A DNA stretch of 32,000 nucleotides from Rhabdonatronobacter sediminivivens (GTDB lineage: Bacteria; Pseudomonadota; Alphaproteobacteria; Rhodobacterales; Rhodobacteraceae): positions 1 to 32,000 of the forward strand of contig NZ_JACBXS010000036.1 of NCBI RefSeq assembly GCF_013415485.1, written 5' to 3'. The position numbers and the translations under genes were made by a program. Below the pieces are notes generated by a model. That model was not told the DNA's origin and did not search any database. It was given only the letters and a program-made list of their open reading frames with translations. Below, piece by piece: positions 7,848 through 31,467 of the stretch; positions within the stretch are counted from its first letter, which is position 1, and each line of letters begins with the position of its first letter.

Positions 7848-9179
7848 ATGAAAAAACAATTCTGCCGGGGGCAACGAGTGACCAAATCCGTTTACGTGGG
7901 CATGAGCGCCGATCTGATCCATCCGGGCCATATCAACATCCTCAAGCGCGCGGCCGAACTGGGCGAGGTCACCGTGGGCCTGCTGACCGACAAGGCGATT
8001 GCCAGCTACAAGCGCGTCCCCTTCATGGCCTGGGAACAGCGCGCCGAGGTGGTGGGCAACCTCAAGGGTGTGGTCCGCGTGGTCCCGCAGCACACGCTGG
8101 ATTATGTGCCCAACCTGCGCGAATATCGCCCCGATTACGTGGTCCATGGCGATGACTGGCAGACCGGCGTGCAGGCCAAGACCCGTCAGGCGGTGATCGA
8201 TGCGCTGGCCGAATGGGGCGGCGAACTGGTCGAGGTGGCCTATACCCAGGGCGTGTCCTCGACCCAGCTGAACAAGGCGCTCAAGGAGATCGGCACCACC
8301 CCGGACATCCGCCGCGCCAGCCTGCGCCGGATGCTGCATGCCAAGCCGCTGGTGCGCTTTCTGGACCTGCACAATGCGCTCTCGGGGCTGATCATCGAAA
8401 AGGCCTTCATCGACACCCCCCAGGGGCGGCGCGAATTCGACGGGATGTGGGCCAGCTCGCTCACCGATTCCACCGCCAAGGGCAAACCGGATATCGAGGC
8501 CGTGGACACCACGGGGCGGATGAACACCCTCAACGAGGTGCTGGAAGTCACCACCAAGCCGATCATCTATGACGGCGATACCGGCGGCAAGCCCGAGCAT
8601 TTCGTCTTCACCGTGCGCACGCTGGAACGCCTGGGCGTGTCCGCCGTCATCATCGAGGACAAGACCGGGCTGAAGAAGAACTCGCTCTTCGGCACGGATG
8701 TCGCCCAGACCCAGGAAAGCATCGAGGCGTTTTCCGACAAGATCCGCATGGGCAAGCTGGCCCAGCAATCCGAGGATTTCATGATCTTCGCCCGCCTGGA
8801 AAGCCTGATCCTGGGCAAGGGCGTGGATCACGCCATGGAACGGGCCGAGGCGTTTCTGGAGGCCGGCGCCGACGGGATCATGATCCATTCGCGCCAGAAG
8901 ACCCCGGATGAGGTGTTCGAATTCTGCCGCCGCTACAACAAGCTGGAAAACCGCAAGCCGCTGGTGGCCGTGCCCTCAAGCTACAACCAGACCACCGAAC
9001 AGGAACTGGAGGATAACGGCGTCAATATCGTCATCTACGCCAACCAGCTGCTGCGTTCGGCCTATCCGGCGATGCTGGGCACGGCGGTGTCGATCCTGAA
9101 ACACGCGCGGTCTTCGGAATGCGATGAGCGGATGATGCCGATCAAGGAAATCCTGGAGCTGATCCCGGGGACGAAATGA
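7848..9179 (+). CDS. pepM: Bifunctional cytidylyltransferase-phosphoenolpyruvate mutase (Fom1-like architecture)
   Basis: The N-terminal ~130 aa, [26 protein letters not shown], is an HxGH nucleotidyltransferase. The remainder is the PEP mutase core: [45 protein letters not shown]. An alternative in-frame GTG start exists at 7878. Confidence 0.95.
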
Positions 9180-10315
9180 TGATCTCGCCCCGCGCGTTTC
9201 ATGCCGCCCTGGCGGCCGAGGGCGTCGATTTCCTGGCCGGGGTGCCCGATTCCCTGCTCAAGGAGTTCTGCGCCTATGTGGATGCCGCCCTGCCCCCCGA
9301 AGGGCATGTGATCGCCGCCAATGAAGGCACCGCCGTGGGGCTGGCGGCGGGCCATCACCTGGCCACCGGCAGCCTGCCGCTGGTCTATCTGCAGAATTCG
9401 GGGCTGGGGAACACGGTCAACCCGATCCTGTCGCTGGCCGACCCCGAGGTCTACGCCCTGCCGATGATCGTCATGGTGGGCTGGCGCGGCGCCCCCGGCG
9501 TCAAGGATGAGCCCCAGCACGTCAAGCAGGGCCGGGTCACGCCCGCGCTGCTCGATGCGATGGAACTGCCATACCGCGCCCTGGACGGCGACCCCGAGGC
9601 CGCCGCCGAGGCCGCCGCCTGGGCTTGCCGCACCGCGCGCGAGACCTCCGCGCCGGTGGTGCTGCTGGTGCACAAGGGCGCCTTTGCCAAGGCCGAGGAA
9701 AAGCGCCCCGCGCGCGACATCCCCGACACCATGCTGACGCGCGAGGCCGCGATCCGGCTGATCACCGGCACCCTGCCCGCCGGCGCCACCATCGTTGCCA
9801 CCACCGGCATGATCTCGCGCGAGCTCTACGAATCGCGCGGGGCGCTGGGGCAGGACCGGTCCGGCGATTTCCTGACCGTGGGGTCCATGGGTCATGCCTC
9901 GCAGATCGCGCTGGGGATCGCGCGGGCAAGGCCCGGCGCGCAGGTGGTCTGCCTGGATGGCGATGGCGCGGCGCTGATGCATCTGGGCGGCATGGCCACG
10001 GTGGGCACCAGCGCAACCGGCGATCTGCTGCATGTGGTGCTCAACAATGGCGCCCATGACAGCGTCGGCGGGCAGCCCACGGTGGCGCAGCAGATCGCGC
10101 TTACGGGGATCGCGCGGGCCTGCGGCTATGACGCCGTCGAAGGCCCGGTCGAGGCCGAGGCCGATATCCGCGCCCAGGTCGATCGCCTGGCGCAGGCCCC
10201 GGGCCGGCGCTTCCTGGAGGTGCGCGTCCGCCCCGGTTCGCGCGCCGATCTGGGCCGGCCAAAGGAAAGCCCCGCGGAAAACAAGGCGCAATTCATCGCC
10301 CGGCTGCGCGGCTGA
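9176..10315 (+). CDS. ppd: Phosphonopyruvate decarboxylase (ThDP-dependent)
   Basis: [58 protein letters not shown]. Its ATG overlaps the pepM stop (ATGA). Confidence 0.95.
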
Positions 10316-10360
10316 CCCCGCGCGCCGCCACAGGACATTCAGACAGAACGGGAGACGCCG

Positions 10361-11494
10361 ATGCCGTCCCAGCCGTGGAGTTTCCACAACCCCGTGAAGG
10401 TGCAGTTCGGGGCGCAATCGCGCAAGGGGCTGGCCGCCACCCTGGCCGGGCAGAAGCTGCTGGTGGTGACCACCGCCCGCGGGCGCGCGCAATTCACCGA
10501 TGACCCGCATCTGGGCACCATCCAGGCCGATCTGACCTGGGTGGACAGCGTCAGCCCCAATCCCGGGCTGACCGACACGCAAAGGGAAATCGACCGGCTG
10601 GCGGGGCAGGACTTCGATGCGGTGCTGGCCTTTGGCGGCGGCTCGGCCATGGATGCGGCCAAGGCGCTGGCGGCGGCGCTGACCCCGGGGCTGGCCTGCC
10701 GCGATCTGGCCAGGCTGATCGACGATCCGGGCGCGCATCTGGACCGACCCCTGCTGCCCATCCATGCGGTCACCACCACCTCCGGCACCGGGGCCGAGGT
10801 CACGCCCTTTGCCACCATCTGGGACCATGAAAACCGCAGGAAACTGTCGCTGGCCAGCCCGCGTCTGTTCCCGGCCACGGCGGTGGTGGATCCGGAACTG
10901 ACCCACGGGCTGCCCGCTGCGGCCACGCTGGGCACCAGCCTGGACGCCATGAACCAGGCGTTCGAATCGGTCTGGAACCGCAACCGCACGCCGATGACCA
11001 CGCTGATGGCCGCCCGCGCCATCGGCCTGGCGCTGCAGGCGATCCCGCGGCTGGTGGCCGATCTGGACGACCACCCCGCCCGCGCCCAGATCGCCGAGGC
11101 CAGCCTGCTGGCGGGGCTGTGCATCAGCCAGACCCGCACCGCGATCTGCCATTCCATGTCCTATCCGCTGACCGCGCATTTCGGCATCGCCCACGGGCTG
11201 GCCTGTGCCGCCACCATGTCGGCGGTGGCCCATGAGGTGCTGGAGCACGCCCCCGATGGCCTGGACGAGGTCGCCGCGCTGAACGGCATGGCGGGGGCCC
11301 GCGCGCTGGTGGCGCACCTGGACACGGTGCTGGCGGGGACCGATCTGCGCGCCCTTGTCGCCGCCGACCTGCCAGAGCCGGAAGCCATCCTCGCCCTGCG
11401 CGGCGAGATGTTCACGCCCGGGCGCAGTGACAATTTCATCCTGCCCGTGGATCATGACATGCTGGGCCGGGTGCTGACACGCGCCCTTGGTTGA
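10361..11494 (+). CDS. Group III iron-containing alcohol dehydrogenase, predicted phosphonoacetaldehyde reductase (PhpC/FomC-like)
   Basis: WSFHNPVKVQFG, AFGGGSAMDAAKA, and a His-rich metal site ...CHSMSYPLTAHFGIAHG. GGGAG lies 6 nt upstream of the ATG. The functional call rests on its position directly after pepM-ppd. Confidence 0.85.
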   Translation: MPSQPWSFHNPVKVQFGAQSRKGLAATLAGQKLLVVTTARGRAQFTDDPHLGTIQADLTWVDSVSPNPGLTDTQREIDRLAGQDFDAVLAFGGGSAMDAAKALAAALTPGLACRDLARLIDDPGAHLDRPLLPIHAVTTTSGTGAEVTPFATIWDHENRRKLSLASPRLFPATAVVDPELTHGLPAAATLGTSLDAMNQAFESVWNRNRTPMTTLMAARAIGLALQAIPRLVADLDDHPARAQIAEASLLAGLCISQTRTAICHSMSYPLTAHFGIAHGLACAATMSAVAHEVLEHAPDGLDEVAALNGMAGARALVAHLDTVLAGTDLRALVAADLPEPEAILALRGEMFTPGRSDNFILPVDHDMLGRVLTRALG

Positions 11495-11515
11495 AGCCTT
11501 GCCCGGGGGGACAGG

Positions 11516-14158
11516 ATGAAACTGGACGATCAACTCGAAGTCCTCAGGAAATCCCGGCAACTGCATCGCAGATGGTATGCCGAAACCTATGCCGATGCCG
11601 CTGCATCGGGGATGGATCCTGCCGAACATTACCTGCATGAGGGCGCCGCGCGCGGCTTCAACCCGGGCAAGTTCTTCGATACGGATTTCTATCTGGCAAG
11701 CTATCCCGATGTGCTGGCCAGCGGGCTCAATCCGGTGGTGCATTTCGAACTGGTCGGCAGCGCCGAGCGCCGCCTGACCCGGCCGCGCAAGGCCCCCGGC
11801 GCACCCGAGGACATGCTGGCCGAAGATGACATGGCACCGGACTGGACCGAAGGCGCGCATCCCCGGGCCTCGGTTCTGATTGTCCGCGGCGGGGCCCGCG
11901 GGGCGCTGGCCGGGACCGACCTGGGCCCGCGCAACCGGTTCCGGCTGCTGCGCGCGCTCAACAGCGCCGATCCCGCCGCCCCGCAGGACCTGTGCGACCA
12001 GGCGCGGGACCTGTGCGACATGATCGCCCGGCTGCAGATGGAATGGATGCCCGTATCGGAGATTCCGACGGGCAAGGCCACGCCCCTGCCCGCGCTGGAT
12101 GGTCCGGTGGTGGCGGTGATCGGCGATGCCGGCAACAGCCCTGCCGATATCGCCGCATTGACCGCGCTGGCCCGCGCCGAAAACCCGCAGGCCACGCTGG
12201 TGCTGTGCGGCACCGGCCCCGATCCGCAGCCTGACCCGGCCCCACAGGGCGGGCCACAGGACGGGCCACAGAACGGGCCACAGGCTGGTGGCGCGGATGA
12301 GGGTGAGACCATGGTCGCCGAGGCGCCCCCCCTGGCGGATGTCCTGCACACGCAGGCCCCGGTCGAGGCGCTGGCCCGGGCCAGCCGCGCCTATACCCAT
12401 GACGCCCCGGCGGGCATGGATGCGCTGATCCGGGGCGTGCCGCTGACCGTCACCGGTGATCCGTTCTACGCGGGCTGGGGGTTCACCGATGACCGCGCCG
12501 CGCTGCGCGGGCGGGCGCGGGCGATGGATTTCGCGCAGTTCCTGGCCCTGTTGCAGTATTTCGTGCCCGATGCGCTGGCCCGCGATGGCTGGTCCGCCAC
12601 CGCCCTTGAGGACGCGCCCCGGATCGGCGGCTGGCTGGTCGACTGGATCGTATCGGATGACTTCGCCATCCATTACACCGCAGGCGTGATGCGCGACAGT
12701 TTCAGCAAGGACGAGCATTTCAAGCTTGGTCAGCTGTTCGAGAAACGGAAGTTCTGGCGCCGGGCGCGGGCCGCCTATGTCCAGGCCGCCAGTTTCGACC
12801 CGGGCAATGCCCGAATTCATTTCCGCGCCGGCTACATGGCCGAGCGGCGCAAGGAATGGCGCGCGGCCGTCCCCCATTACCGGGTCGCCCTCCGCCTGCT
12901 GCCCGGCAACCCGACCTATCGCTTCCGCATGGGGTTCGCGCTGGAAAAGCAGCGCTTCTGGGAAGAGGCGGTCCATTGCTACGCCGGCGCCCTGTTGCTG
13001 GACAACACCAGCCAGAAGTTCCGCGAGCGGCTGCCCATGGCCCGCACGCTGATGAACTTCGTGCGCGATCACCGCGCGGTCAGCGCCGCGTATCTGTCCG
13101 AACTGCATGACGGCGCCGCCGTGACCACGGCCGACCTGTCGGTCAACGGGGTCTATACGGCGAAATGCCGGCTGCACATGCTGGAACACGAAGGCCGGAA
13201 GACGCGGATCTTCGAGAAGCTGATCATGCCGCACCGGGCGGCCTATGCCCTGCGCGAAGTGATCGCCAACGAGGAACTGGCCAGGCTGGATGTGCCGACC
13301 GATCTGCATTTCCCCGCCCTTCTGGGCGTGATCCGCGCCGAGGACGGTGTGCGCGCCATGTTCTTCGAGAATGTCGAGCTTGCCCCCGAAACCGCCACCG
13401 AAACCGCCACCGGGCGCGCCATCGGGGACCGGGATGGAAGCGGGGACGGCGATGACAGGGCGCGGGCGGTCGAGGCCACGGAGGCGATGGTCGCACCGCT
13501 GACGGCCCTGGCGCTGGCCGATTGCTCCACGATGGCCCTGGACCGGCTGGAAGGGCTCGGCAGTGTCTCGGACGCCGATGAGGAAGAGGCCGAGGACCTG
13601 TTCGGCGAGGTCTATCGCCGCAAGCTTGCCTGCCTGATGGACAGCCCCGAAACCGTGCAGGAGATGGAGCGCTTCATCATCGACAACGCCATCGCCCGCA
13701 AGCGCGACGAAACCGTGACCGATTACGCCACGGAACTGTGCAGCCTGCTGGGCCTGTTGCAGCCGCGGCTGGCGGGCACCTTTGCCGCACTGTCGGCCGT
13801 GCCGGGCCATGGCGATCTGAAGCCCGACAATGTGCTGCGCGACCGCGACGGCAGGCTGGTGCTGATCGACTGGCAGTATCTGGCGCTCATGCCCGCAGGG
13901 TTCGACCTGGCGCGCTTCGCCACCTGGTCGGATCTGGACTGGCACGGCTTCGAGGCGGCGGCGCGCCTTTATGCGCATAATCTGGAAACCCGTTTTCCGG
14001 CGGTGCAGGTGATGTGGTCAAGCTGTCTGTGCTATCTTCTGGATGCGCTGGCGTCGCGGCCGGGATGGGTGCAGGAATCGCATGAGGTTTCGGTGCGCCC
14101 GGCGCTGGCCGCCCTGCGCCGACTGTCGGGCCAGATCACCCTGGGAAGTTCAGAATGA
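11516..14158 (+). CDS. 880-aa multidomain protein: shared N-module, KpsC/KpsS-like (Capsule_synth) domain, TPR, and protein-kinase-like phosphotransferase domain
   Basis: N-terminus MKLDDQLEVLRKSRQLHRRWY...NPGKFFDTDFYLASYPDVLASGLNPVVHFELVG. The middle, THDAPAGMDALIRGVPLTVTGDPFYAGWGFTDDR, resembles the KpsC PFYAGWGLT motif. TPR-like region: FEKRKFWRRARAAYVQAASFDPGNARIHFRAGY. The C-terminus has HGDLKPDNVL...LIDWQY, a kinase catalytic loop. Confidence 0.85.
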   Translation: MKLDDQLEVLRKSRQLHRRWYAETYADAAASGMDPAEHYLHEGAARGFNPGKFFDTDFYLASYPDVLASGLNPVVHFELVGSAERRLTRPRKAPGAPEDMLAEDDMAPDWTEGAHPRASVLIVRGGARGALAGTDLGPRNRFRLLRALNSADPAAPQDLCDQARDLCDMIARLQMEWMPVSEIPTGKATPLPALDGPVVAVIGDAGNSPADIAALTALARAENPQATLVLCGTGPDPQPDPAPQGGPQDGPQNGPQAGGADEGETMVAEAPPLADVLHTQAPVEALARASRAYTHDAPAGMDALIRGVPLTVTGDPFYAGWGFTDDRAALRGRARAMDFAQFLALLQYFVPDALARDGWSATALEDAPRIGGWLVDWIVSDDFAIHYTAGVMRDSFSKDEHFKLGQLFEKRKFWRRARAAYVQAASFDPGNARIHFRAGYMAERRKEWRAAVPHYRVALRLLPGNPTYRFRMGFALEKQRFWEEAVHCYAGALLLDNTSQKFRERLPMARTLMNFVRDHRAVSAAYLSELHDGAAVTTADLSVNGVYTAKCRLHMLEHEGRKTRIFEKLIMPHRAAYALREVIANEELARLDVPTDLHFPALLGVIRAEDGVRAMFFENVELAPETATETATGRAIGDRDGSGDGDDRARAVEATEAMVAPLTALALADCSTMALDRLEGLGSVSDADEEEAEDLFGEVYRRKLACLMDSPETVQEMERFIIDNAIARKRDETVTDYATELCSLLGLLQPRLAGTFAALSAVPGHGDLKPDNVLRDRDGRLVLIDWQYLALMPAGFDLARFATWSDLDWHGFEAAARLYAHNLETRFPAVQVMWSSCLCYLLDALASRPGWVQESHEVSVRPALAALRRLSGQITLGSSE
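12242..12289 (+). repeat. Imperfect 12-bp x4 in-frame tandem repeat, encoding (PQxG)n linker
   Basis: ccacagggcggg / ccacaggacggg / ccacagaacggg / ccacaggctggt, inside the 880-aa gene. Confidence 0.8.
12367..12515 (+). repeat. 149-bp tract, identical except for one base, to 18451-18599 (copy A)
   Basis: Base-by-base comparison at offset 6084 gives a single mismatch, 12457 t versus 18541 c. The flanks diverge immediately on both sides. Confidence 0.9.
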
Positions 14159-22729: not shown

Positions 22730-22907
22730 GGGCCATATGCGGATCCACCCCGCCCCCCTGCGTGTGAAGCTGCCTGCAGAAGTGACCCACTCGGGTGGAT
22801 TTGCGGTTCTCGCCCCCGGCAGTTGCGGATAACCTGCAGGCCGGGCCGCCGAAACTGCCAGCGTCACGGTGGGGTGCCCGGCCACAAGGGAAGACTGGAC
22901 CCGTGCA

Positions 22908-23660
22908 ATGACCGGCTTTGCAGACAGCAGGAAAAACAGACCCGCAGACACGCGAAGCCCTTCGAAGGAGACGGATGCTTCGGCGCCATCCGCGCTCGAT
23001 GTGGCCATCGCATCCCTGGCGACCCGGGGCAAGCTGCGCTTCGTGCAGGTCGGTGCCAATGACGGCAAGCTGGAAGACCCGATACATCACCATGTTCTGG
23101 CGCATGGGGCCGAGGCCCTTCTGATCGAACCCCAGCCCTGGCTGATCGCGGCGCTGCGCGACAATTACGCCGCCTTTCGCGGCAAGCTGATGATCGAGAA
23201 CATCGCCATCGGCCCGGACCACGGCACGCTGTCCCTGCATACCCTGAAGCGCGCGTTCTGGGACGATTACACCGCCCGGGACGGCCGCAGCCCGACCATC
23301 CTGTTCTCCCCGGACCGGGATCTGCTCAGACGCCGTATTGCCAGACGCATGAAGGTGGACATCGACGAGGCCGAGCGGCGCCTGGACACCATCGATGTGC
23401 CCATGGCGCCGCTGTCGGATGTGCTGGCCCGCCACGGCATGACGGATATCGACGTGCTGCAGGTCGATTGCGAGGGCTGGGACGTCAAGGTCATCCTGTC
23501 GCTGGGAGAGGTCCGCCCCGCCGTGATCCATTTCGAATCCCTGAGCCTGAGCGACGCCGACAGGCAGGCGTTTTCGGACTGGAGCAGGCAGAACGGTTAT
23601 GGCTGCATTCAGGGCTGGAAGGACACGCTGGCGATCCGCGGCCTGTCCCATCCCGCATGA
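22908..23660 (+). CDS. FkbM-family methyltransferase
   Basis: LRFVQVGANDGKLEDPI, LLIEPQP, IDVLQVDCEGWDVKVILSL, VIHFES. The start is uncertain: ATG 22908 or GTG 22869. Confidence 0.85.
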   Translation: MTGFADSRKNRPADTRSPSKETDASAPSALDVAIASLATRGKLRFVQVGANDGKLEDPIHHHVLAHGAEALLIEPQPWLIAALRDNYAAFRGKLMIENIAIGPDHGTLSLHTLKRAFWDDYTARDGRSPTILFSPDRDLLRRRIARRMKVDIDEAERRLDTIDVPMAPLSDVLARHGMTDIDVLQVDCEGWDVKVILSLGEVRPAVIHFESLSLSDADRQAFSDWSRQNGYGCIQGWKDTLAIRGLSHPA

Positions 23661-23661
23661 C

Positions 23662-23680
23662 CGCGCCCCCCGTGGGCGCG
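23662..23680. terminator. 7-bp GC stem with 5-nt loop in the 46-bp gap between convergent operons
   Basis: cgcgccc-cccgt-gggcgcg, starting 2 nt after the FkbM stop. No U-tract. Confidence 0.35.
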
Positions 23681-23706
23681 CAGGGTGCAGGCCGGGCACA
23701 GGGGGG

Positions 23707-24426
23707 CTAGAGCAGGCTGATCCCCCGCGCCTTGCGCGCCAGGGCAATGTCTTCGAGCAGGTGGAACTGGTCCTCCCAGTCGATATCCATGACCAGCCGT
23801 TCGGGCATGTCATGCAGATACGGGTTGGTGCCGATCCGGTCATCGACCGCGCGCATCCGGGCGAAGGGCATCAGATAGGCGGCGTGGTTGATCTCGAACA
23901 GCGGCTTGATGTCCTGGCTGCGGGGCCATTTCTCGACCGTGTTGTCGTAATTGTAAGGGCCGTTTTCATCCCAGATGAACTTGTGCAGCGTGGTGACGGT
24001 GACCAGGCTGTCATGGCCCCGCGCTTCGGCCGCCCGCCAGGCGGCGATCAGGTCCGCAAACACCGCCGCGGTGAGGAACGGATGCGTCACATGGGTCATC
24101 ATCATCACGCCGGTCTCGCGCAGGGTCGCGGCGTAGCGGATGAAGGCGCTAATCGGGGTTGAGGACGCGCCCAGCTCATCGGGGCGTTCGATGGGACTCA
24201 CGCGGCGGTCATGGTCCCGGGCAAACTGCGTGGCATAGTCCAGCACCACGGGATCATTGGTCGAGACAATGATCTCCGAGACCTCGGGCACCCGGGCAAG
24301 CTGGTTCAGCTTCAGCTCCAGCAACCCGCCGTCGAAGCCGGCGAAGGGGCGGGTGTTCTTCTGCTTCACCCGCTCGCTGCCCGCGCGGGCGGGGATCAGG
24401 GCGATGACCCTGCCTGTGTCAGTCAT
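23707..24426 (-). CDS. Acylneuraminate cytidylyltransferase-family protein (CMP-ulosonic acid synthetase-like), paralog 1
   Basis: VIALIPARAGSERVKQKNTRPFAG is the N-terminal CTP_transf_3-type motif. 239 aa. Confidence 0.85.
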   Translation of the reverse strand: MTDTGRVIALIPARAGSERVKQKNTRPFAGFDGGLLELKLNQLARVPEVSEIIVSTNDPVVLDYATQFARDHDRRVSPIERPDELGASSTPISAFIRYAATLRETGVMMMTHVTHPFLTAAVFADLIAAWRAAEARGHDSLVTVTTLHKFIWDENGPYNYDNTVEKWPRSQDIKPLFEINHAAYLMPFARMRAVDDRIGTNPYLHDMPERLVMDIDWEDQFHLLEDIALARKARGISLL

Positions 24427-24510
24427 GCGTGCGGTATCCCGTTGCTGCAGTCATGGGGCGCACCCCGCGCAGGCAAACCCCGGCCGGGGCGCAGCGATCA
24501 CGCGGACCCG

Positions 24511-25251
24511 TCACGGGGCCTGGAAGTCCGGGTAAGGTATGCCGTTCTCGCGGATCCAGTCCTCGGTGGTCTTGAGGTCCTCAAGGCTGTGGACATCCAG
24601 GCAGCCCTTGGTCGGATACGGCTTGATCCGGGTGCCCATGCAATCCCACGGCCCCTGCCCGCCCGGCGTGCGGATCGCATCCGCGCGCAGCACCCAGATG
24701 GAATGATCGAAGAAATAGCAGGTGGGCAGGTCCTGGCGGTTGGCCGAGACCGGCGCCCCGGTATCGACAAAGGGTTTCAGCAGGCCTTCGTCGGTCACGC
24801 CCTTGGCGCGCATGGGATGGTATTCGTTGTGTTCATGGCTGGGCACCACGGAACTGAGGCTCGCATCCGCCAGAAGCTGGTCGATGCAATCGTCGATGAT
24901 CTGTTCGGATATGGTGCCGACATTGGCATGCTGCACGATCACGATATCCACCGGGCCGTCGGCCTCGATCACCTTCAGCGCATGGCGCACCGCATCGCAG
25001 CTTTGCGCGGTGTCGCTGGCCAGTTCATCGGGACGGCGGATCTTCGCATACCCGGCCTGTGCCGCCGTATCGAGGATCTTCTCGTCATCGCTGCTGATGT
25101 AGTAACGGCCGATATGGCGGCTGCGCCGCGCCGCCGCCGCTGCCCAATGCAGCAGCGGATGGCCCAGCACCGGCAGGATGTTCTTGTCTTTCAGCGAGCT
25201 TCCCCCCCGCCCGATCATCAATGCCGCGATCGTCGCGCGCTTTTCACTCAT
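24511..25251 (-). CDS. Acylneuraminate cytidylyltransferase-family protein, paralog 2
   Basis: MSEKRATIAALMIGRGGSSLKDKNILPVLGHPLLHW. ATG at 25251 lies 5 nt after the upstream stop. The track start 25410 is rejected because that extension is Arg/Gly junk. Confidence 0.85.
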   Translation of the reverse strand: MSEKRATIAALMIGRGGSSLKDKNILPVLGHPLLHWAAAAARRSRHIGRYYISSDDEKILDTAAQAGYAKIRRPDELASDTAQSCDAVRHALKVIEADGPVDIVIVQHANVGTISEQIIDDCIDQLLADASLSSVVPSHEHNEYHPMRAKGVTDEGLLKPFVDTGAPVSANRQDLPTCYFFDHSIWVLRADAIRTPGGQGPWDCMGTRIKPYPTKGCLDVHSLEDLKTTEDWIRENGIPYPDFQAP

Positions 25252-25256
25252 GCCGC

Positions 25257-26798
25257 TTACCCTGCCTTTCGGAAATACTTGTGGTGTTCGCTCTCGTTCA
25301 CGCGCTTCTCCTCCGAGCCGATGATCACCTCGGCCTCGCGGATGGCGGCGACGTAATCGGCGAATTCGCGGGTGGTCAGATCCAGCGCCACGGCATCGAA
25401 ATGGGCCCATTCGGTATTGCCCAGCTTCACATGCTTTTCCACCATCCGCGCGCCCGCCGCCACCGCCAGGGTTGACGCCAGGGCGCCGAAATCATGGCTG
25501 GAATAGGCCGGGACGATATGGGGGTGCGCCTTCGACAGATCCCGGTAATGGCGGATCACGCCGATGTCGCAATCATGCAGCGGCGTGGGATAGGCGGAGT
25601 TGCACTGCATCAGATACAGCCGGTCGCAACTGGTGAAGGTCTCCAGCACCCATTGTTCATAGGCGGTGTCGGTCATGCCCGTGGACAGCACGATCCCGCC
25701 TTTGTACGTGTTCGCCACATGGGCCAGATAGTCGGTATGTTCCGAAATGGTCGAGGGCAGCTTGACCAGCTCGGGCTCGAACTGCTGCATGAAGCGGAAC
25801 GAGGGTTCATCGAGCACCGAGGCGAACCAGCGGATGCCAAGATCACGGCACAGCCGGTCCAGGAATTCGAAATCTTCCTGGCTCAGTTCCAGCGCGTGGC
25901 GATAATCGCGGAAGGTGGTGCCGAAGGGCGAGACATATTTCCCGTCCAGCTGCTCCTTGGGGTAGAAGCTTTCCACGTCGCGCTTCTGGACCTTGACGAA
26001 ATCGGCCCCTGCGGCGCGGGCGGCGCGCACCATGCGTTCCAGCCGGTTGCGGTCGCCGAAATGGTTGGTGGTCAGTTCCGCGGTGACCAGCACCCGGTCG
26101 GGGTCGGTGTCGGTGCCGCTGTCCAGTTCGGGCAGGAAACGGGTGTTCAGCTCCTCAGGGGTCAGGCCGGAAAACGCCCGGTCGCCCACATGCTGGATGT
26201 CCACCTCGCTGTCGCGCAGCATGTACAGGGTGTTGATGAAATAGAATTCCTGCGGGGAAATGCGGGCCATGCGCTCGCCGGTCTCGGTGGGGGCGTAATC
26301 ATGGTCGATGGCATGGGCATAGCCCTTGGTGGCGGCGAAATCGAAGCCCAGCATATAGACCGTCTGGGTGCGCCCGCGCTGGCGCGCGATCAGGCGCGCC
26401 AGCCGCAGCGCCGAGACAAAGAGCACATCCTCGATCACGAAATCCTCGCCCGGGGTGTCGGTGACCAGGCGGCTCATCATCACGTCGGTGCCTTCCTGAT
26501 CGCCGCGCACATGGCGCGCGTGCGCCACATCGCCGCGCGGCGGGGCGATATCCTGCGGGGTCACATAAAGCCGTGAGCGCCAGCCGCTGGCCTTGAGCGC
26601 CTCATGCACCCAGCCGTCATGAAAGATGGTGATGTCGCAGGGCGCAATGCGTTCGGCATCGTTGAGCCCGATCACCAGCGCATTGGACAGAAGCGCCGGG
26701 TTGATCCGGTCAACCGACGGTCCCTTGCCCAGAATGAAGATCGTATCGGTGCCGAATGTCGACGCGATACTTTCGACCCGGTTCGAGAAATTCGCCAT
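25257..26798 (-). CDS. NeuB-family (sialic/ulosonic acid synthase) TIM-barrel domain fused to an N-terminal ~235-aa GxGPS transferase-like domain; no SAF domain
   Basis: C-terminal half: VTAELTTNHFGDRNRLERMVRAARAAGADFVKVQKRD...VKLPSTI...YSSHDFG...ARMVEKHV. N-terminal half: TIFILGKGPSVDRINPALLSNALVIGLNDA...TVYMLGFDF. Start ATG 26798 has GAAGGGA ~10 nt upstream; the alternative is 26828. Confidence 0.85.
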   Translation of the reverse strand: MANFSNRVESIASTFGTDTIFILGKGPSVDRINPALLSNALVIGLNDAERIAPCDITIFHDGWVHEALKASGWRSRLYVTPQDIAPPRGDVAHARHVRGDQEGTDVMMSRLVTDTPGEDFVIEDVLFVSALRLARLIARQRGRTQTVYMLGFDFAATKGYAHAIDHDYAPTETGERMARISPQEFYFINTLYMLRDSEVDIQHVGDRAFSGLTPEELNTRFLPELDSGTDTDPDRVLVTAELTTNHFGDRNRLERMVRAARAAGADFVKVQKRDVESFYPKEQLDGKYVSPFGTTFRDYRHALELSQEDFEFLDRLCRDLGIRWFASVLDEPSFRFMQQFEPELVKLPSTISEHTDYLAHVANTYKGGIVLSTGMTDTAYEQWVLETFTSCDRLYLMQCNSAYPTPLHDCDIGVIRHYRDLSKAHPHIVPAYSSHDFGALASTLAVAAGARMVEKHVKLGNTEWAHFDAVALDLTTREFADYVAAIREAEVIIGSEEKRVNESEHHKYFRKAG

Positions 26799-27534
26799 GA
26801 TAGGGTTTCCCTTCAACTTCGATATCACAATGATGTTCGCGCGCCAGCATCAGCCCGGGCAGCAGATCCCAGGAATAGGCCCCGCGCGGGTTGGTAAAAC
26901 GGGCAAAGGCCCCGCGCACGACATTATACAGGTTATACACCGCGCAGCCCATCAGGCGGCTTTCGCGGGTCTCGGCCATGCCTTGCAGGATTTCATCACA
27001 CATGGATGACGAAAACCCGCGAATGCGCGACCGGATGGGCACCAGCGTATCGCCGGTCATCAGATGTTCGTTCAGTTCGGGCAGATACAGCAGGCTGCCC
27101 AGATGGGTTGTCCCGTGCCAGAGCGTGAAGGACACGCCCCATTCCTTCAGGCCGGAACAGAAATTCTCGGTCCCGTCGATCGGGTCCAGGATGGCGTAAT
27201 AGCCCGCACTGGTCAGGTCGGTCTCGGCGGAAAAGGTTTCTTCGCCGGCGAAGGTGACATCGGGGATGCGCGCGGCCAGATAGTCATGGATCAGGGTTTC
27301 GATCAGCACGTCCGAGGCGGTGACCGGGCTGCCATCGGGCTTGATGGTGATGTCATAGCGGCTGGCCTGGATGCGCTCCATGTTGGCGCGCACCAGATCC
27401 ATCAGCCCCGCCATCAGGGCGCGGGTCTGCGCCAGATCCGGCAGGGTGTCGGCCTGCAGGCGCGGTTCGGCGGCGGTCGATGCGGCGGCGGTCGATGCAG
27501 CAGGGGGCGGGGCGGCGGGGGGCGGAGGCGTCAT
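26710..27534 (-). CDS. Inositol monophosphatase / CysQ-family phosphatase
   Basis: ILDPIDGTENF and YSWDLLPGLMLARE motifs. Its ATG overlaps the upstream stop (ATGA). Its 3' end overlaps the next gene by 89 nt. The N-terminus is Pro/Ala-rich and contains a 15-bp x2 repeat at 27469-27498. Confidence 0.85.
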   Translation of the reverse strand: MTPPPPAAPPPAASTAAASTAAEPRLQADTLPDLAQTRALMAGLMDLVRANMERIQASRYDITIKPDGSPVTASDVLIETLIHDYLAARIPDVTFAGEETFSAETDLTSAGYYAILDPIDGTENFCSGLKEWGVSFTLWHGTTHLGSLLYLPELNEHLMTGDTLVPIRSRIRGFSSSMCDEILQGMAETRESRLMGCAVYNLYNVVRGAFARFTNPRGAYSWDLLPGLMLAREHHCDIEVEGKPYHGEFLEPGRKYRVDIRHRYDLHSGQGTVG

Positions 27535-30500
27535 TCTGCGGCATTCCTTTCGGCGTCAGCTTTGGACGGAGGGGGATCAAGCGGCTTTTCCAGCCCCAGC
27601 AGGTCGAAGAAATCCACCCGCTCCAGCATGTCCAGCTTGCCCCCCGGCGAGGCGTTGTAGAGCCGGCAGCCATCGCTTTCGACGGCCTTCTGCAGATTGG
27701 CAAAGGCCAGGTTGACCATCTCGGTGCCCGATCCGCCGGGGCGGAAATTGGCCAGCCGTTCGGTCTCCTTGCGGCCGCCGCCGTAGAAATGCGTCACCGC
27801 GCCGGAATAATCCAGATCGACCCCGATGATGTAGATTTCCGAATAGCCCATCAGATGCGCCAGCTGCGCGGCCAGCACCACCACGGTCTCGCCGCGGTGG
27901 AAATGCAGCGGCGCATGGCGGAAGGGGGCCAGCGACAGCTTCAGCCCCGAAGACCCCAGCGGGATCGCGGGCACCGTGGGCGGCTTGCGCCACAGGCAGT
28001 TCGAGGCGACGAAGAATTTCTCGACCGAGGCGCCGTCGGCGTCGATCTCCCCGGCGTGGTTCTTGTAGACAAGCGGATCGGCCACCACCAGGTATTTCGG
28101 CTGCGGCAGGCCCACATCCAGCGCCCGCATCCCGCGGTTGACGCAGAAGATATCCTCGCCCGCCAGCGCGCCCAGCGGCAGATCGGCGATCGACGGGGCA
28201 TTGCCGACGATGAAGCAGCGCTTGCGCCCGGCCAGGTTCAGGGTGGTGCCCGCATCGAAGCCCAGATGGCGCTGCTGCCAGTCGCCGATACGCTCGGCCA
28301 TCTGGGTGAAGCCCAGCCGTTCGGCACAGGCCAGCAACCGCGCGACCACGCCCGCCGACAGCGGCAGGCGGAACAGCAGCCCCGTGGTCAGCGACATGGC
28401 GAACCCGTCCAGGTCGTTCTGCGCCAGCTGGTCCAGAAAGGCGGTGGCCTCGGCCTCGGCCCCGGCGACATCGGCGCGCCCCAGCATGATGTCGATCTTG
28501 TTGCGGATGACGTTCCAGACCTTCCTGACGTTCGCGTCGGTCAGCTCGCCGGGGGCGGGCAGGGCCAGCAGCGCTTCGACCTGCTCCCAGTCGCGCCGGC
28601 GCATGAAGAACTGCAGCAGCTCTTCTTGCTGCACCGGGTCCATCTCCAGCCCCTGGGCGGCGGTCTCGGCGATCCGGGCGGCATGGGTCACGGCGACCGC
28701 ATCGCCCTGCGCGGGATTGAGCAGCATGCCGATGGAATCGGACAGGAACTTGCCGTCATAAAGCGTGGCGATGCGCAAAAGCAGCTCGTGGATTTCCTGC
28801 GGCAGGAAGGATTGCGGCGCGGGGTGCAGCCGGATCAGGTCATAGATCCAGCGGGTGACGCGCAGTGTCTCGATGCTCTTTGGCAGTTTCTGCGTCACCG
28901 CCGCCTGCATCACATCGCGCATGGCGGCGAAATCGCCGCGCCGGTAATGGATTTCGATCATGGCGCGCAGCCACAAGGTGTCGCGCGCGTAGCGGGCCGT
29001 GTATGTCTCCAGCACTTCCTCGCAGTCCTCCAGCCGCGAACTTTCCAGCAACGAGAGCACCAGCGAGGGAAAATAGATGCGCGGCTCCGGCGCGCTTTCC
29101 AGCAGCTTGCGCACCCACCAGATCGAGGCCGAATGGCGGGTATTCGCCGACAGGAGCCGCGCCACCATGGCGCGGACATTCTCGGGGTAGAAGCGGCGGG
29201 CGCGGCGGGCAAACAGCAGCGCCCCGGCCTCGTCCACCGATTGCACGGTGGTGGCCAGCGTCAACATGCCGGTGGCGCGCAGCCGGCCGATGCGGATGGC
29301 CTCGGTGCGCGCGCGCGCGTTTTCGACCCCGATGCGATAGACCCATTCGGGCGGCATGGCCCCGGCCTCGGTGGGGTCGATGGCTTCGACCTTCTGCCAG
29401 CGCTCCAGCGCCACGGCCCAGGCATCCTGGGCGATGGCGACCTCGGAATGCAGCTTCAGATAGGCGATCTCGCGCGGGAATTTGGTGACCAGGCGCTTGG
29501 CCTCTTCTTCGGCCGCGTCCGGATCCCCGGCCTGCACCAGCGCGCGCACGCCGCGCAGATAGCTGCTGGTCTTGGCCACGCCGGTGGCCTTCAGCCCGCG
29601 CTTCAACCAGATATCGGCGGCGCGGGCCCAATCGCCCTGCGCTTCGGCCAGCAGCCCGTCGGCGCGCTGAAAGCCGGTATCCGCATCATGGCTGGCGCGC
29701 AGCCCTTCGACCAGGGCCTCGGCCCGGGGCAGGTCGCCCAGCTGGACAAAGGCTTCGACCACCGAAAGCTGCAGCTTCGGCTCCACCAGGGCGCCGCTGT
29801 CCTCGATCATCTGCCAGCGCAGGGCGACATCGCTCCAGCGTCTGGCCTTCAGCGCCAGCCGGCACCAGGCCTCCAGCAGCAGGGGGTTGGCCTCGAACCG
29901 GGCCAGACCGTCGCGCAGGATCGCATCGGCGCGGGCCAGATCGCCCATTTCCGCCGCCGCCTGGCTCAGCCCGACATAGGGTTCGGCAGGCAGCGCCAGC
30001 GCGTGCTGCCAATGGCGCGAGGCCTCCAGCCAGTCGCCCTTCTTCGCTGCCGCACGGGCCTTGGCCGACAGCCGGTCCAGGGCGGTGCTCTGGCCCGGAG
30101 CGGCGGCGGGCGGGGCGGCGGGCGGCGGGGTGGCGGGGCCGGGTTTCAGCGTGGCCTTGAGCTTGCGTATCTCCTCCTGGGCGGCCTTGGTGGCGGCCTC
30201 GGCAGCGGCCTTGCGGGCTTCGGCAATGGCGGTCTTCCGGACGGATTCGGCCTCCTTGCGGCGGGCGGCTTCCGTGGCCTTCCGGGCCTTCTGGTCCTCG
30301 CTCGCGGCCTTGGCGGGGTTGATGATCCGGTTTTCCGCAACACCGATCACTTCATAGTGGACCAGCGGGTTCAGCCCGCTGGTGGCCACATCCGGGTAGC
30401 GCGAGACATAGAGCGCCGTGTCGAAGAACTTGCCGGGGTTATACCCTTTCTGCGCGCCCTCGGTCAGGTAATGCTCGGCCGGGTCCAGGCCCTGCGCCTT

Positions 30501-30584
30501 CACCTCGGGATAGGTGCTGCGATACCAGCTCTTGTGCAGGTGCTTGGAATTCTTTATCTTTTCCAGTTGTTCGGAAATATCCAC
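27531..30584 (-). CDS. 1017-aa protein: shared N-module, Ala/Lys/Glu coiled coil, long TPR array, and C-terminal GT42/DUF115 (Maf)-like CMP-nonulosonate transferase-like domain
   Basis: GTG start with GGAGG ~8 nt upstream. (M)DISEQLEKIKNSKHLHKSWYRSTYPEVKAQGLDPAEHYLTEGAQKGYNPGKFFDTALYVSRYPDVATSGLNPLVHYEVIG. C-terminus: CFIVGNAPSIADLPLGALAGEDIFCVNRG...LMGYSEIYIIGVDLDY, compare Cst-II IIAGNGPSLKEID...DVFRCNQF...LGYKEIYLSGIDFY. Confidence 0.85.
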   Translation of the reverse strand: MDISEQLEKIKNSKHLHKSWYRSTYPEVKAQGLDPAEHYLTEGAQKGYNPGKFFDTALYVSRYPDVATSGLNPLVHYEVIGVAENRIINPAKAASEDQKARKATEAARRKEAESVRKTAIAEARKAAAEAATKAAQEEIRKLKATLKPGPATPPPAAPPAAAPGQSTALDRLSAKARAAAKKGDWLEASRHWQHALALPAEPYVGLSQAAAEMGDLARADAILRDGLARFEANPLLLEAWCRLALKARRWSDVALRWQMIEDSGALVEPKLQLSVVEAFVQLGDLPRAEALVEGLRASHDADTGFQRADGLLAEAQGDWARAADIWLKRGLKATGVAKTSSYLRGVRALVQAGDPDAAEEEAKRLVTKFPREIAYLKLHSEVAIAQDAWAVALERWQKVEAIDPTEAGAMPPEWVYRIGVENARARTEAIRIGRLRATGMLTLATTVQSVDEAGALLFARRARRFYPENVRAMVARLLSANTRHSASIWWVRKLLESAPEPRIYFPSLVLSLLESSRLEDCEEVLETYTARYARDTLWLRAMIEIHYRRGDFAAMRDVMQAAVTQKLPKSIETLRVTRWIYDLIRLHPAPQSFLPQEIHELLLRIATLYDGKFLSDSIGMLLNPAQGDAVAVTHAARIAETAAQGLEMDPVQQEELLQFFMRRRDWEQVEALLALPAPGELTDANVRKVWNVIRNKIDIMLGRADVAGAEAEATAFLDQLAQNDLDGFAMSLTTGLLFRLPLSAGVVARLLACAERLGFTQMAERIGDWQQRHLGFDAGTTLNLAGRKRCFIVGNAPSIADLPLGALAGEDIFCVNRGMRALDVGLPQPKYLVVADPLVYKNHAGEIDADGASVEKFFVASNCLWRKPPTVPAIPLGSSGLKLSLAPFRHAPLHFHRGETVVVLAAQLAHLMGYSEIYIIGVDLDYSGAVTHFYGGGRKETERLANFRPGGSGTEMVNLAFANLQKAVESDGCRLYNASPGGKLDMLERVDFFDLLGLEKPLDPPPSKADAERNAAE

Positions 30585-30696
30585 CGTCTGACCCCTCCGA
30601 CAGACCCTGTGCTGTCGTGTTGTGCGGCCCCGCCACCGCGCCGGACGGTCCGCGCCTGTCTCTCAATCTGTTACTGCACTGCAGCATGAACAATAT

Positions 30697-31467
30697 TCAG
30701 GCTGTAGCCGGTTCTCCGTAATCTGTCGAGCCTTTGCCTGCATAGCTGGCGCGGGCATAGAAACCAATGACAGAGGTCAAATCCGCCGCCCCGATCATCC
30801 CCGGCACCAGGGCGAATTCGGCCATCCGCCCGATGGTGCGCACCGGTTGCGCGAAGCGTTCCACGGTGTGATAGGCGGGGCGGTCGGTATAGTCATCGAA
30901 CAGCACCGTGACCGGGCGGGTGATGCGCAGCGCCACGCTGGCCAGGCAGGCGGCCCGGAAGCGGCCGTCGATCAGCACCAGATCGGGGTGGCGAAAGAAG
31001 GGCTGATCCCAGATATCCAGCGGGTAGCGGTGAAACTGCGCCCAGGCGGCATCGCTGCGCGGCCGGCCCCAGGCGCCGGTGGGGCCGATATCGACATGAT
31101 GCACCACCACCGGCGAGGGCAGGCGCGCACGGTCCAGCGCCAGTTGCAGCCGCAGCGCCCAGGCGCGGTCGGATTCGACGCTGAAGATCATCTTGCCGGG
31201 CAGCCGCGCCGCCACCCAGGTGGACCCGCCCGAGCCATATTCCAGGATCACCCCCGCCCCCGCCTGGGCGGCGCGCAGATGGGCGGCCTCGGCCGCGGGG
31301 AAGGTCAGCTCGAACGCGGCGCCTGCACTGTCCGGCGCGGGGGCATCGGGGGCGTCGGAAGCGGCAGCATCGGAGGCGGGCGTCTCAGGGGCGGGGGGCG
31401 TTTCGGAAGCAGGGGGCGTTTCGGGCGCAGCATCCGGAGACGGGCTGTCCTGGGGCGGCTGGGTCAT
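30697..31467 (-). CDS. Putative class-I SAM-dependent methyltransferase with Pro/Ala/Asp-rich N-terminus
   Basis: VILEYGSGGSTWVAARL (motif I), PDLVLIDGRFR, TVLFDDY. AAGAGG lies 11 nt upstream of ATG 31467. The track start 31911 is rejected. Confidence 0.8.
   Translation of the reverse strand: MTQPPQDSPSPDAAPETPPASETPPAPETPASDAAASDAPDAPAPDSAGAAFELTFPAAEAAHLRAAQAGAGVILEYGSGGSTWVAARLPGKMIFSVESDRAWALRLQLALDRARLPSPVVVHHVDIGPTGAWGRPRSDAAWAQFHRYPLDIWDQPFFRHPDLVLIDGRFRAACLASVALRITRPVTVLFDDYTDRPAYHTVERFAQPVRTIGRMAEFALVPGMIGAADLTSVIGFYARASYAGKGSTDYGEPATA

Follow-up and report, generated by a model that had tools for sequence, protein, structure and literature searches.

A probable surface-glycan island of modular soluble enzymes with phosphonate and ulosonic-acid genes in Rhabdonatronobacter sediminivivens

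Introduction

A 32,000-nucleotide stretch of the alphaproteobacterium Rhabdonatronobacter sediminivivens (contig NZ_JACBXS010000036.1, positions 1 to 32,000; hereafter the window) contains two operons that converge on each other. The plus-strand operon begins with genes for phosphonate synthesis and continues into the large proteins p880, p799 and p1716, and the minus-strand operon carries a NeuB-family synthase fusion, two cytidine monophosphate (CMP)-sugar-acid synthetase-like proteins (cyt1 and cyt2) and the large protein p1017. An initial annotation proposed that the two form one system for a glycoconjugate that contains a phosphonate and an ulosonic acid and is built by modular tetratricopeptide-repeat (TPR) enzymes. 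The locus raises the question of whether the two gene sets act together, on what acceptor, and by which enzymes the phosphonate would be attached. Phosphonates form a large, poorly understood share of marine organic phosphorus, and their attachment is known only for LicD-type enzymes. They are thought to be carried on cell-surface glycans or glycoproteins (PMC8931226).

The window is of a known general kind, that of islands for surface glycans which modular soluble enzymes build and which bear phosphonate and ulosonic-acid groups. The reading that we favor, with confidence about evenly balanced, is that it forms the core of an island of at least 39 kb of entirely soluble enzymes, in which a surface polysaccharide is assembled and tailored in the cytoplasm by modular polymerase/terminator enzymes and exported by an ABC transporter whose existence we infer. 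The two cassettes occur separately elsewhere and are joined here, and their action as one system is partly supported. Three components are not described in the literature searched, namely the multi-module protein p1716, a sulfotransferase-fold (ST-like) domain family tied to PepM, and the cassette of IMPase-like phosphatase, MptE-like-NeuB fusion and CMP-transferase. They provide three leads: a candidate alternative machinery for phosphonate attachment, in the ST-fold family that flanks PepM in Alpha- and Gammaproteobacteria, Desulfobacterota, Bacteroidota and Spirochaetota; a widespread uncharacterized three-gene cassette that probably makes an ulosonic acid; and a rare enzyme of ~1700 residues suited to dissecting the evolution of modular polymerase/terminator complexes.

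Methods

The G+C content of the window is ~68%, so that raw lists of open reading frames (ORFs) are full of shadow frames. Genes were called using GC3 frame bias (codon-position GC) together with homology. Plus-strand ORFs at 5-400 and 482-2626 were rejected as frame artefacts, the real gene being a minus-strand giant glycosyltransferase (GT) of family GT2. Domains were annotated with Pfam and TIGR profile scans, phmmer and profile matches to PDB sequences, hhalign, and AlphaFold followed by Foldseek. Two sets of related loci were collected: 80 loci from many phyla in a genome scan for the PepM fusion (65-92% identity) and 80 loci in a metagenome scan for the NeuB fusion (38-84% identity). All window proteins were compared with both sets in a tblastn matrix. 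Where 81 other PepM loci are counted, these are the 80 from the genome scan plus that of a Pseudorhodobacter metagenome-assembled genome (MAG), locus L001.

Organization of the island

All 14 genes that the initial annotation assigned to the two operons were recovered in place by GC3 frame bias and domain scans, and direct reading confirmed its ATGA start/stop overlaps at 9176, 14155 and 27531. Its domain assignments were borne out, some by weak matches; these include the genes for CMP-ulosonic acid supply and the KpsC-like, GT42/Maf-like and sulfotransferase-like domains. No credible hydrophobic segment that could form a transmembrane helix is present in any protein of the window. Domain scans of the window proteins likewise upheld the statement that Wzx/Wzy, an ABC transporter, Wza and a phosphoglycosyl transferase are missing from it. 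The module types that were recognized are a kinase and several methyltransferases, together with ulosonate transferases of the KpsC-like and GT42-like types and spacers of helical structure.

The shared N-terminal module (N-module) that had been proposed is real, with 50-69% identity among four window proteins. It spans ~90 residues with two YP(D/E)V…NP..HY repeats and heads p880, p1716, p1017 and the giant GT2 protein at the left edge, a fourth member that had been overlooked and whose N-module is 50-55% identical to the other three. Large GT2 and GT4 proteins from Methylobacterium and from other bacteria also contain the repeat, often in many copies.

Left of the phosphonate operon, the GT2 giant, a UDP-glucose dehydrogenase and a coiled-coil protein (3726-5411) form one minus-strand operon. 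The giant is homologous to a 951-residue GT2 protein of L001. The head of the coiled-coil protein matches Methyltransf_24 below the curated cutoff (E=0.0016), as does that of its L001 homologue, and the whole resembles WbdD-type chain terminators as an architectural match only. Its C-terminus carries an SWR.TAPLR motif that is also known from other coiled-coil proteins associated with glycan assembly, and that may serve membrane association or recruitment.

A contig that is 98% identical to positions 24092-32000 (L005) extends 7.3 kb beyond the right end, where it encodes a 904-residue GT2-GT1 fusion, a TupA-like ATP-grasp protein, a GT4 protein and a 366-residue protein; ENA contig k141_212430 shows 98% DNA identity to the window. 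The initial annotation had placed polymerization and export elsewhere and suggested a search of the flanks for kpsMT, wza or wzx, and none of these lies in the 7.3 kb to the right. The claim stands for export, for which the window holds no genes, but not for polymerization, since an N-module GT2 giant and the coiled-coil protein lie inside the window on its left and more glycosyltransferases follow beyond the right end. The TupA-like gene (L005 3293-4978) lies near the UDP-glucose dehydrogenase gene (2498-3673), a pairing reminiscent of the Campylobacter jejuni capsule, in which glucuronic acid is amidated in an ATP-dependent reaction (PMC11800397).

The phosphonate operon

The first three plus-strand genes encode a fusion of a cytidylyltransferase (CyTase) with phosphoenolpyruvate (PEP) mutase (PepM), the decarboxylase Ppd and an iron-dependent alcohol dehydrogenase (Fe-ADH). 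The genes for the Fom1-like route to CMP-2-hydroxyethylphosphonate (CMP-HEP) that had been proposed are present, with matches to TIGR02320, TIGR03297, Fe-ADH and PDB entry 5X3D. PepM, Ppd and Fe-ADH would convert PEP to phosphonopyruvate, phosphonoacetaldehyde and HEP, steps that are shown at the level of their families, and the N-terminal CyTase domain would activate HEP to CMP-HEP, judging from homology to Fom1. The PepM domain scores at equivalog level (TIGR02320, 396 bits against a cutoff of 319.55). The CyTase domain matches 5X3D over residues 5-138 (E=5.1e-61, 210 bits), an entry of 160 residues named 'Phosphoenolpyruvate phosphomutase' that we take to be the Fom1 CyTase domain. The fusion is 91% identical to the L001 protein and 91-92% identical to PepM of Rhodobacteraceae and Pseudorhodobacter MAGs; a look-up of the exact protein returned no record. 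Fe-ADH, which presumably reduces phosphonoacetaldehyde to HEP, scores below the cutoff of TIGR03405 (292 against 424 bits) and comes after PepM-Ppd in 69/80 related loci.

The operon then continues into p880, p799 and p1716. Over its N-terminal 352 residues, p880 shares 44% identity with p1716, and a 178-nt direct repeat of 93% DNA identity (12367-12544 in p880, 18451-18628 in p1716) encodes the KpsC/KpsS signature …GDPFYAGWGFTDD, which suggests a recent gene conversion that would keep the two KpsC-like catalytic cores alike. Capsule_synth (PF05159) is matched by both proteins (26.3 and 24.5 bits, cutoff 20) over profile positions ~233-280 of 310 only. With phmmer, p1716 residues 218-335 align to KpsC 165-271 (E=1e-5) and p880 residues 280-329 to KpsC 223-272, the N-terminal subdomain remaining unaligned in both. 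For this region, relatives of solved structure were found only among the KpsC beta-Kdo transferases (Kdo, 3-deoxy-D-manno-octulosonic acid), with E=1e-5 to 4e-7 over ~50-115 residues.

For the middle domain of p1716, an AlphaFold model from a 3-sequence alignment was unusable (pLDDT 48) and a profile search against the PDB returned nothing relevant, the sole Pfam hint being Glyco_transf_9 (E=0.2) in two of four members. The methyltransferase-like p284 is 81% identical to an L001 protein and is kept in the minimal operon of that MAG.

Two further observations concern these genes. The last ~60 codons of p799 (16375-16554) are rich in Pro and Arg, lack a counterpart in the p1716 C-terminus and run past the position where the next gene starts (16467). 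A lost stop, a frameshift or a true overlap of 88 nt may account for this. An APH-family kinase recurs with p1716-type proteins, fused in p880 (13136-14155) and as a stand-alone gene on contig L173 (5096-6220), with no detectable similarity between the two kinases at E<=1e-4.

The ulosonic-acid cassette

The central protein of the minus-strand operon fuses a 240-residue N-terminal domain to a NeuB-family synthase. The NeuB domain scores 151.5 bits (cutoff 22.1) over the full profile (positions 1-241), that is, a full TIM barrel, and the fusion matches the PseI structure 8H2C with E=8e-22. It does not reach the equivalog level of TIGR03569 (131.9 against 399.65 bits) or TIGR03586 (113 against 340 bits), and no SAF domain is found in it, the alignment ending at model position ~271-274 of 327-329. 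A profile of the N-terminal domain found no credible match among PDB sequences; its label as MptE/GT42-like is based only on hhalign to the C-terminal domain of p1017 (probability 81%, E=1.2e-5).

The C-terminal domain of p1017 carries a GNAPS motif and matches the sialyltransferases CstII and CstI with E=0.005-0.02. MptE-like (PF01973) is matched below cutoff (24.8 against 34.6 bits); p1017 orthologues carry precomputed PF01973 annotations, and two of them are named DUF115/MptE-like by NCBI. About 15 relatives of p1017 were found, all in Rhodobacterales. Of the two CTP_transf_3 proteins, which show no detectable sequence similarity to each other, the cyt1 type is found with the cassette in L007 and in many metagenome loci, and the cyt2 type in L003 and L173.

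Within this cassette, the NeuB-family synthase would condense PEP with a common sugar, probably in phosphorylated form, the phosphate would be removed by the IMPase-like phosphatase, a CTP_transf_3 enzyme would make the CMP-ulosonic acid and p1017 would transfer it. ManC genes lie near the cassette in several loci, and a product like 2-keto-3-deoxy-D-glycero-D-galacto-nononic acid (Kdn) is for this reason the best guess. The IMPase-like gene adjoins the NeuB fusion in 67 related loci, and it was rejected as a 3'-phosphoadenosine 5'-phosphate (PAP)-type phosphatase that would serve the ST-like domain, because its regular companion is the NeuB cassette rather than PepM. An out-of-frame overlap of ~60-90 nt between these two genes is kept in three genomes (26710-26798 in the window, 13823-13914 in L003 and 13843-13904 in L007). 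The upstream start of the NeuB fusion is considered real because the N-terminal residues encoded in the overlap are conserved.

Co-occurrence of the two gene sets

The initial annotation held that a single system would be co-conserved in other genomes, and in general it is not. The PepM-Ppd-ADH triad is present in nearly all PepM loci, and the NeuB fusion, the IMPase-like gene or p1017 in none of the 80. Conversely, the IMPase-like gene, the NeuB fusion and either cyt1 or cyt2 are found together in nearly all NeuB loci, of which 0/80 contain PepM, Ppd or ADH. By this measure the cassettes are independent of each other, and each occurs alone in a close relative, the phosphonate operon in L001 and the minus-strand operon in L003. 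The L001 locus consists of a DUF2793 gene, a small ORF, PepM, Ppd, ADH, p284 and p1705, followed by convergent GT2, nucleotidyltransferase and UDP-glucose dehydrogenase genes; the NeuB cassette, p880, p799 and FkbM are all missing from it. Loci of the p1017 type have p1017, the IMPase-like gene, the NeuB fusion and a CMP-transferase and no PepM; such cassettes lie beside RTX proteins in Jannaschia, beside a transposase on a metagenome scaffold, and beside GT2 and UDP-glucose dehydrogenase genes in a Natronohydrobacter MAG.

These observations favor the first alternative, that the two cassettes are mere neighbors in a variable glycan island and decorate different polymers, for example lipopolysaccharide (LPS) and capsule. 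The L001 operon leads to GT2 genes with no NeuB cassette, and in L007 a four-gene cassette lies among unrelated genes and adjoins a transposase, which makes it look mobile and self-contained. We consider this alternative possible though rather unlikely, and what speaks against it is the part of the single-system claim that stood, namely a second convergent juxtaposition and the similarity of the N-modules.

Full-length relatives of p1716 are rare, with one found among 5.8 billion proteins (60% identical, in a Pseudorhodobacter MAG). A profile search of 1.84 billion representatives returned a second p1716-like protein, P0130 (1577 residues), on the 7-kb contig L173. Four loci of the p1716 type are known, of which L012 ends within the gene; in two of the three informative loci, the window and L173, the operon converges on the cassette. 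Contig L173 contains the 3' end of ADH, the p1716-like gene, the APH kinase and then a convergent cyt2. Its cyt2 shares 93% protein identity and 91% DNA identity with that of the window, while the p1716-like gene is far more divergent (67% in DNA, 47-64% in protein). This discordant divergence at the junction argues for a repeated or maintained association and against an accident. The N-module is common to p1017 and the plus-strand giants, and the p1017 copy resembles that of p1716 (69% identity) more than it does the copy in the Jannaschia orthologue of p1017 (57%). In addition, the KpsC-like domains of the plus-strand operon would need a CMP-ulosonate-type donor.

A homologue of p284 (42% identical) lies 480 nt downstream of a NeuB fusion on a short metagenome contig (L125 2084-2881), another weak link between the two gene sets.

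Nature of the acceptor

The initial annotation also allowed for a protein acceptor, for which no export machinery would be needed. On this alternative, p1017 would act in the manner of Maf and FlmG, the glycosyltransferases that modify flagellin in the cytoplasm. This agrees with the solubility of all window proteins, the TPR regions that precede catalytic domains, the membership of Maf in the MptE-like/DUF115 family and the large RTX-type secreted proteins that adjoin the Jannaschia cassette. Maf and FlmG add nonulosonic acids before export (PMC7591256, PMC4065374), and phosphonates have been proposed on glycoproteins (PMC8931226). The genomic context gives this alternative no support, however. 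Neither the window nor the annotated loci of the p1017 type (L003, L005-L008) contain a flagellin or flagellar gene; the neighbors are GT2, GT4 and UDP-glucose dehydrogenase genes, with Wzz-like and ABC genes in several loci; and the p1017 C-terminal domain matches CstII/CstI (E=0.005) better than Maf structure 5MU5 (E=1.6). Elsewhere, the NeuB cassette is accompanied by genes for an ABC-2 permease, an ABC ATPase, Wzz/KpsE-like and KpsC-like proteins, a hexapeptide acetyltransferase, GT2 giants and ManC, a context that is that of polysaccharide, sometimes capsule-like and never flagellar. A protein acceptor is accordingly judged improbable.

Finally, a small-molecule phosphonate resembling fosfomycin as the product of the plus-strand operon, with no glycoconjugate, is very improbable: its first three genes mirror Fom1, Fom2 and FomC, but Pfam scans of the window proteins reveal no radical-SAM, epoxidase, hydrolase or resistance-type domain, the operon runs on among glycosyltransferases into KpsC-like/TPR/kinase proteins of 800-1700 residues, and across phyla this PepM fusion accompanies LicD or TagF-like transferases.

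Candidate phosphonate transferases

The 300 C-terminal residues of p1716 are paralogous to residues 433-739 of p799 (27% identity). The Pfam match of this domain to Sulfotransfer_3 is below threshold (21.3 bits, cutoff 27). An AlphaFold model built from 13 diverse sequences (pLDDT 80.9, pTM 0.81) was searched with Foldseek, and all 30 of the best PDB matches belong to the sulfotransferase family that depends on 3'-phosphoadenosine 5'-phosphosulfate (PAPS), one of them being a retinol dehydratase. The probability is 1.00 for the top 17 matches and the TM score 0.37-0.52 for the top 18, led by the CurM sulfotransferase, TPST2, Stf1 and Stf9. The fold assignment is sound despite the sub-threshold Pfam score because only sulfotransferases appear at the top. 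The family consensus reads GWSGSGAV and RDPR is invariant; a Ser at +8 is present in p1716 and absent from most members. These motifs are atypical, in that canonical PAPS-binding motifs have Lys/Arg in the 5'-phosphosulfate-binding loop, where GWSGSGAV has an aromatic residue, and Arg and Ser in the 3'-PB motif.

At E<=1e-30 the family comprises 389 clusters in the search of 1.84 billion representatives. Its profile was detected in 7/81 other PepM loci (Rhodobacteraceae, Maricaulaceae, Rhodanobacteraceae, Desulfosarcina, Chitinophagaceae and Spirochaetia) and in 0/84 NeuB loci. As an independent check, a profile search gave 11 members, and three of the four that were looked up directly adjoin CyTase-PepM/Ppd genes; one of these three lies in a cluster of the 2-aminoethylphosphonate (AEP) type and one also has a TagF-like gene. 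Elsewhere, ST-like domains are fused to GT2/GT1, FkbM, alginate lyase, TPR and LamG modules, and none of nine long family members scanned is fused to PepM, CyTase or Ppd. These fusions and PepM neighbors characterize the family as one of glycan tailoring that is tied to phosphonate clusters. No paper linking pepM with sulfotransferases in bacteria was found in the literature searched.

In the other PepM loci the usual candidates for attachment are LicD (20/81) and a TagF-like glycerophosphotransferase (17/81), which never occur together (0/81). Neither is present in the window, and most loci with the ST-like domain lack both. Strict mutual exclusion was rejected, as TagF-like and ST-like genes are found together in L032 and L172.

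A more far-reaching proposal, which we put forward tentatively and consider unlikely, is that the ST-fold domains of p1716 and p799 are a third class of phosphonate-installing enzyme that replaces LicD and TagF and transfers the phosphonate onto the glycan from CMP-HEP or from a kinase-made, PAPS-like 3'-phospho-CMP-HEP, so that the p1716-type protein and the NeuB-fusion cassette build an undescribed glycan of HEP and ulosonic acid. The use of a PAPS-like donor by this domain is speculation.

Proposed assembly and points against it

In the cytoplasmic assembly that we favor, p1716, p799 and p880 would put the phosphonate on the growing or finished glycan, to judge from their context, and would fill the place of the LicD/TagF-like phosphotransferases of other PepM loci, accompanied by the methyltransferases p284 and FkbM. 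The ST-fold domain would be the most likely donor-binding catalytic module for the transfer. The KpsC-like module would be an alternative, because its solved relatives bind CMP-Kdo. The N-module, together with the helical regions and with the coiled-coil protein left of the phosphonate operon, suggests that the enzymes form a multiprotein polymerase/terminator complex. One polymer would then bear phosphonate, methyl and ulosonic acid as side or chain-end decorations, and the ABC transporter that exports it would be encoded outside the available sequence.

Several points weigh against this reading. The window and the 7.3-kb right flank show no transporter, no enzyme for a lipid carrier or lipid acceptor and no gene for outer-membrane export. 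The KpsC-like match spans only about one-third of the KpsC fold, and the MptE-like, Methyltransf_24 and Sulfotransfer_3 matches are all below curated cutoffs. Since TagF-like genes occur together with the ST-like domain in L032 and L172, this domain is not necessarily the transferase of the phosphonate, and the two cassettes may serve different polymers here, given that each is self-sufficient elsewhere.

Comparison with known systems

A hallmark of glycan assembly that depends on ABC transporters is a terminating enzyme on a coiled-coil ruler, the terminators being kinase/methyltransferase pairs or Kdo transferases with modules spread over interacting proteins; modular polymerase-terminator examples are WbdD of Escherichia coli O9a, WbbB of Klebsiella O12, and Klebsiella O4 and O7 (PMC11231755, PMC3482155). 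The window resembles these O-antigen and capsule systems in its soluble multi-module enzymes with helical or coiled-coil spacers, in its coiled-coil methyltransferase-like protein and in the variable distribution of kinase, methyltransferase and Kdo-type transferase modules among what would be complex-forming polypeptides. It differs in that no ABC transporter, Wzt with a carbohydrate-binding module or undecaprenyl-linked primer enzyme is seen, in that its spacers are mostly TPR-like and its decorations are a C-P phosphonate and a NeuB-derived ulosonic acid, and in its ST-fold module and N-module, which have no counterpart there.

Group 2 (Kps) capsules and rhizobial K-antigens (KpsC/KpsS; 6MGB, 8FUW) share with the window the …GxPFYAGWGFTDD signature of p880 and p1716, cytoplasmic assembly and ulosonic-acid chemistry, and in L092 and L161 the NeuB cassette accompanies ABC-2, ABC ATPase, Wzz/KpsE-like and KpsC-like genes. 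Unlike in those systems, the alignment to KpsC covers only ~50-115 residues, the KpsC-like region forms part of larger proteins of 880 and 1716 residues that have other modules, and kpsMTED is missing from the available sequence.

The early steps of fosfomycin synthesis (Fom1/Fom2/FomC) correspond to CyTase-PepM, Ppd and Fe-ADH. In the later steps of that pathway, methylation, CMP hydrolysis and epoxidation are carried out by Fom3, FomD and Fom4. Pfam scans of the window proteins found no radical-SAM or other domain that enzymes for these three reactions would be likely to have.

Surface tailoring by PntC and LicD follows the same logic of a CMP-activated phosphonate donor (PMC6697681, PMC8942020); the window differs in having p1716, p799 and p880 in the place of a LicD/TagF-like enzyme. 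Capsule tailoring in C. jejuni, with O-methyl phosphoramidate (MeOPN) from CDP-phosphoramidate 3'-phosphate and amidation of glucuronic acid (PMC11800397), is similar in its presumed CMP-linked phosphorus donor and methyltransferases, in UDP-glucuronic acid (UDP-GlcA) supply with an ATP-grasp enzyme nearby and in multi-domain polymerizing glycosyltransferases. The differences are a C-P phosphonate in place of a phosphoramidate and an APH-type kinase domain, no 3'-kinase of the adenosine 5'-phosphosulfate (APS)-kinase type being recognized. Maf and FlmG systems (PMC4065374, PMC7591256) likewise have soluble proteins with helical/TPR regions and a DUF115/MptE-like or GT domain beside NeuB and CMP-synthetase genes. 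Unlike them, the window has no flagellar context and no precursor genes for pseudaminic or legionaminic acid (Pse/Leg), the catalytic domain of p1017 is closer to GT42 CstII, and NeuB has a second MptE-like domain as its fusion partner and comes with an IMPase-like phosphatase.

Feature coordinates and neighboring elements

Table 1. Annotated features of the 32,000-nucleotide window with the principal evidence for each
Feature	Position	Strand	Evidence or remark
Giant glycosyltransferase: N-module, GT2, C-terminal region; runs off left edge	<1..2230	-	Glycos_transf_2, 71 bits
UDP-glucose 6-dehydrogenase; supplies UDP-GlcA	2498..3673	-	All three UDPG_MGDP_dh domains
Methyltransf_24-like head and ~330-residue coiled coil	3726..5411	-	Crescentin-rod and other coiled-coil matches
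DUF2793 protein	5495..6715	+	Directly upstream of phosphonate operon, with the small ORF
Small ORF	6729..7070	+	Follows the DUF2793 gene
Fom1-type CyTase-PepM fusion; start possibly GTG 7878	7848..9179	+	TIGR02320, 5X3D
Phosphonopyruvate decarboxylase Ppd	9176..10315	+	TIGR03297, 467 bits (cutoff 312)
Fe-dependent alcohol dehydrogenase	10361..11494	+	Fe-ADH Pfam, 115 bits, above cutoff
p880: N-module, KpsC-like region, TPR, APH/choline-kinase-like domain	11516..14158	+	Pfam
p799: helical/TPR-like N-part, ST-like domain at ~433-739	14155..16554	+	Homology
p284 (284/277 residues): TylF/Methyltransf_24-like, weak	16446/16467..17300	+	Methyltransf_24 E=0.076, CalS11 E=0.03
p1716: N-module, KpsC-like, helical, alpha/beta domain, helical, C-terminal ST-like	17579..22729	+	Pfam, AlphaFold/Foldseek
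FkbM-family methyltransferase	22869..23660	+	Methyltransf_21 46 bits, TIGR01444 56 bits
Convergence gap with GC-rich hairpin	23661..23706		Read directly; like shuffled sequence
cyt1: CMP-sugar-acid synthetase-like CTP_transf_3	23707..24426	-	Pfam/TIGR scans
cyt2: second CTP_transf_3 protein	24511..25251	-	Pfam/TIGR scans
Fusion of MptE/GT42-like N-domain and NeuB-family synthase	25257..26798	-	NeuB PF03102, 8H2C
IMPase/CysQ-superfamily phosphatase	26710..27534	-	Inositol_P, 66 bits
p1017: N-module, TPR, GT42/MptE-like C-domain; candidate ulosonic-acid transferase	27531..30584	-	Profiles
Methyltransferase-like protein	30697..31467	-	PDB 3CVO, E=1.4e-52

The operons converge, as had been noted, on a gap of 46 bp that contains a GC-rich hairpin (Table 1). 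The hairpin is no more stable than chance, its energy of -28.4 kcal/mol being at the level of shuffled sequence (z = -0.45). The gap contains no T-run, and a terminator and promoter scan of the convergence region found nothing at the gap. Because of this energy and the missing T-tract, the hairpin is not evidence of a terminator. An Rfam scan of the whole window returned no family, and a megablast search of the plus-strand operon against plasmids gave no match.

Upstream of PepM, ~425 nt (7423-7847) are kept in L001 within one alignment block that is 83% identical overall. The conserved block, within which a minus-strand ORF of 57 codons was called in L001, has no Rfam match and, judging from this conservation of sequence, may be a regulatory region.

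The DUF2793 protein and small ORF are also found upstream of the phosphonate operon in the Pseudorhodobacter MAG (L001 2951-4695). In two polysaccharide loci from metagenomes (L096 2091-3665; L114 5734-6927), a DUF2793 gene is also located no more than 10 kb from the NeuB cassette. The DUF2793 protein is homologous to rcc00171, a tail-fiber protein of the Rhodobacter capsulatus gene-transfer agent (GTA) (PMC5026251, PMC10883770). Its position beside glycan loci may reflect co-variation of tail fiber and receptor glycan, and this repeated neighbor hints that the decorations set the receptor specificity of GTA or phage.

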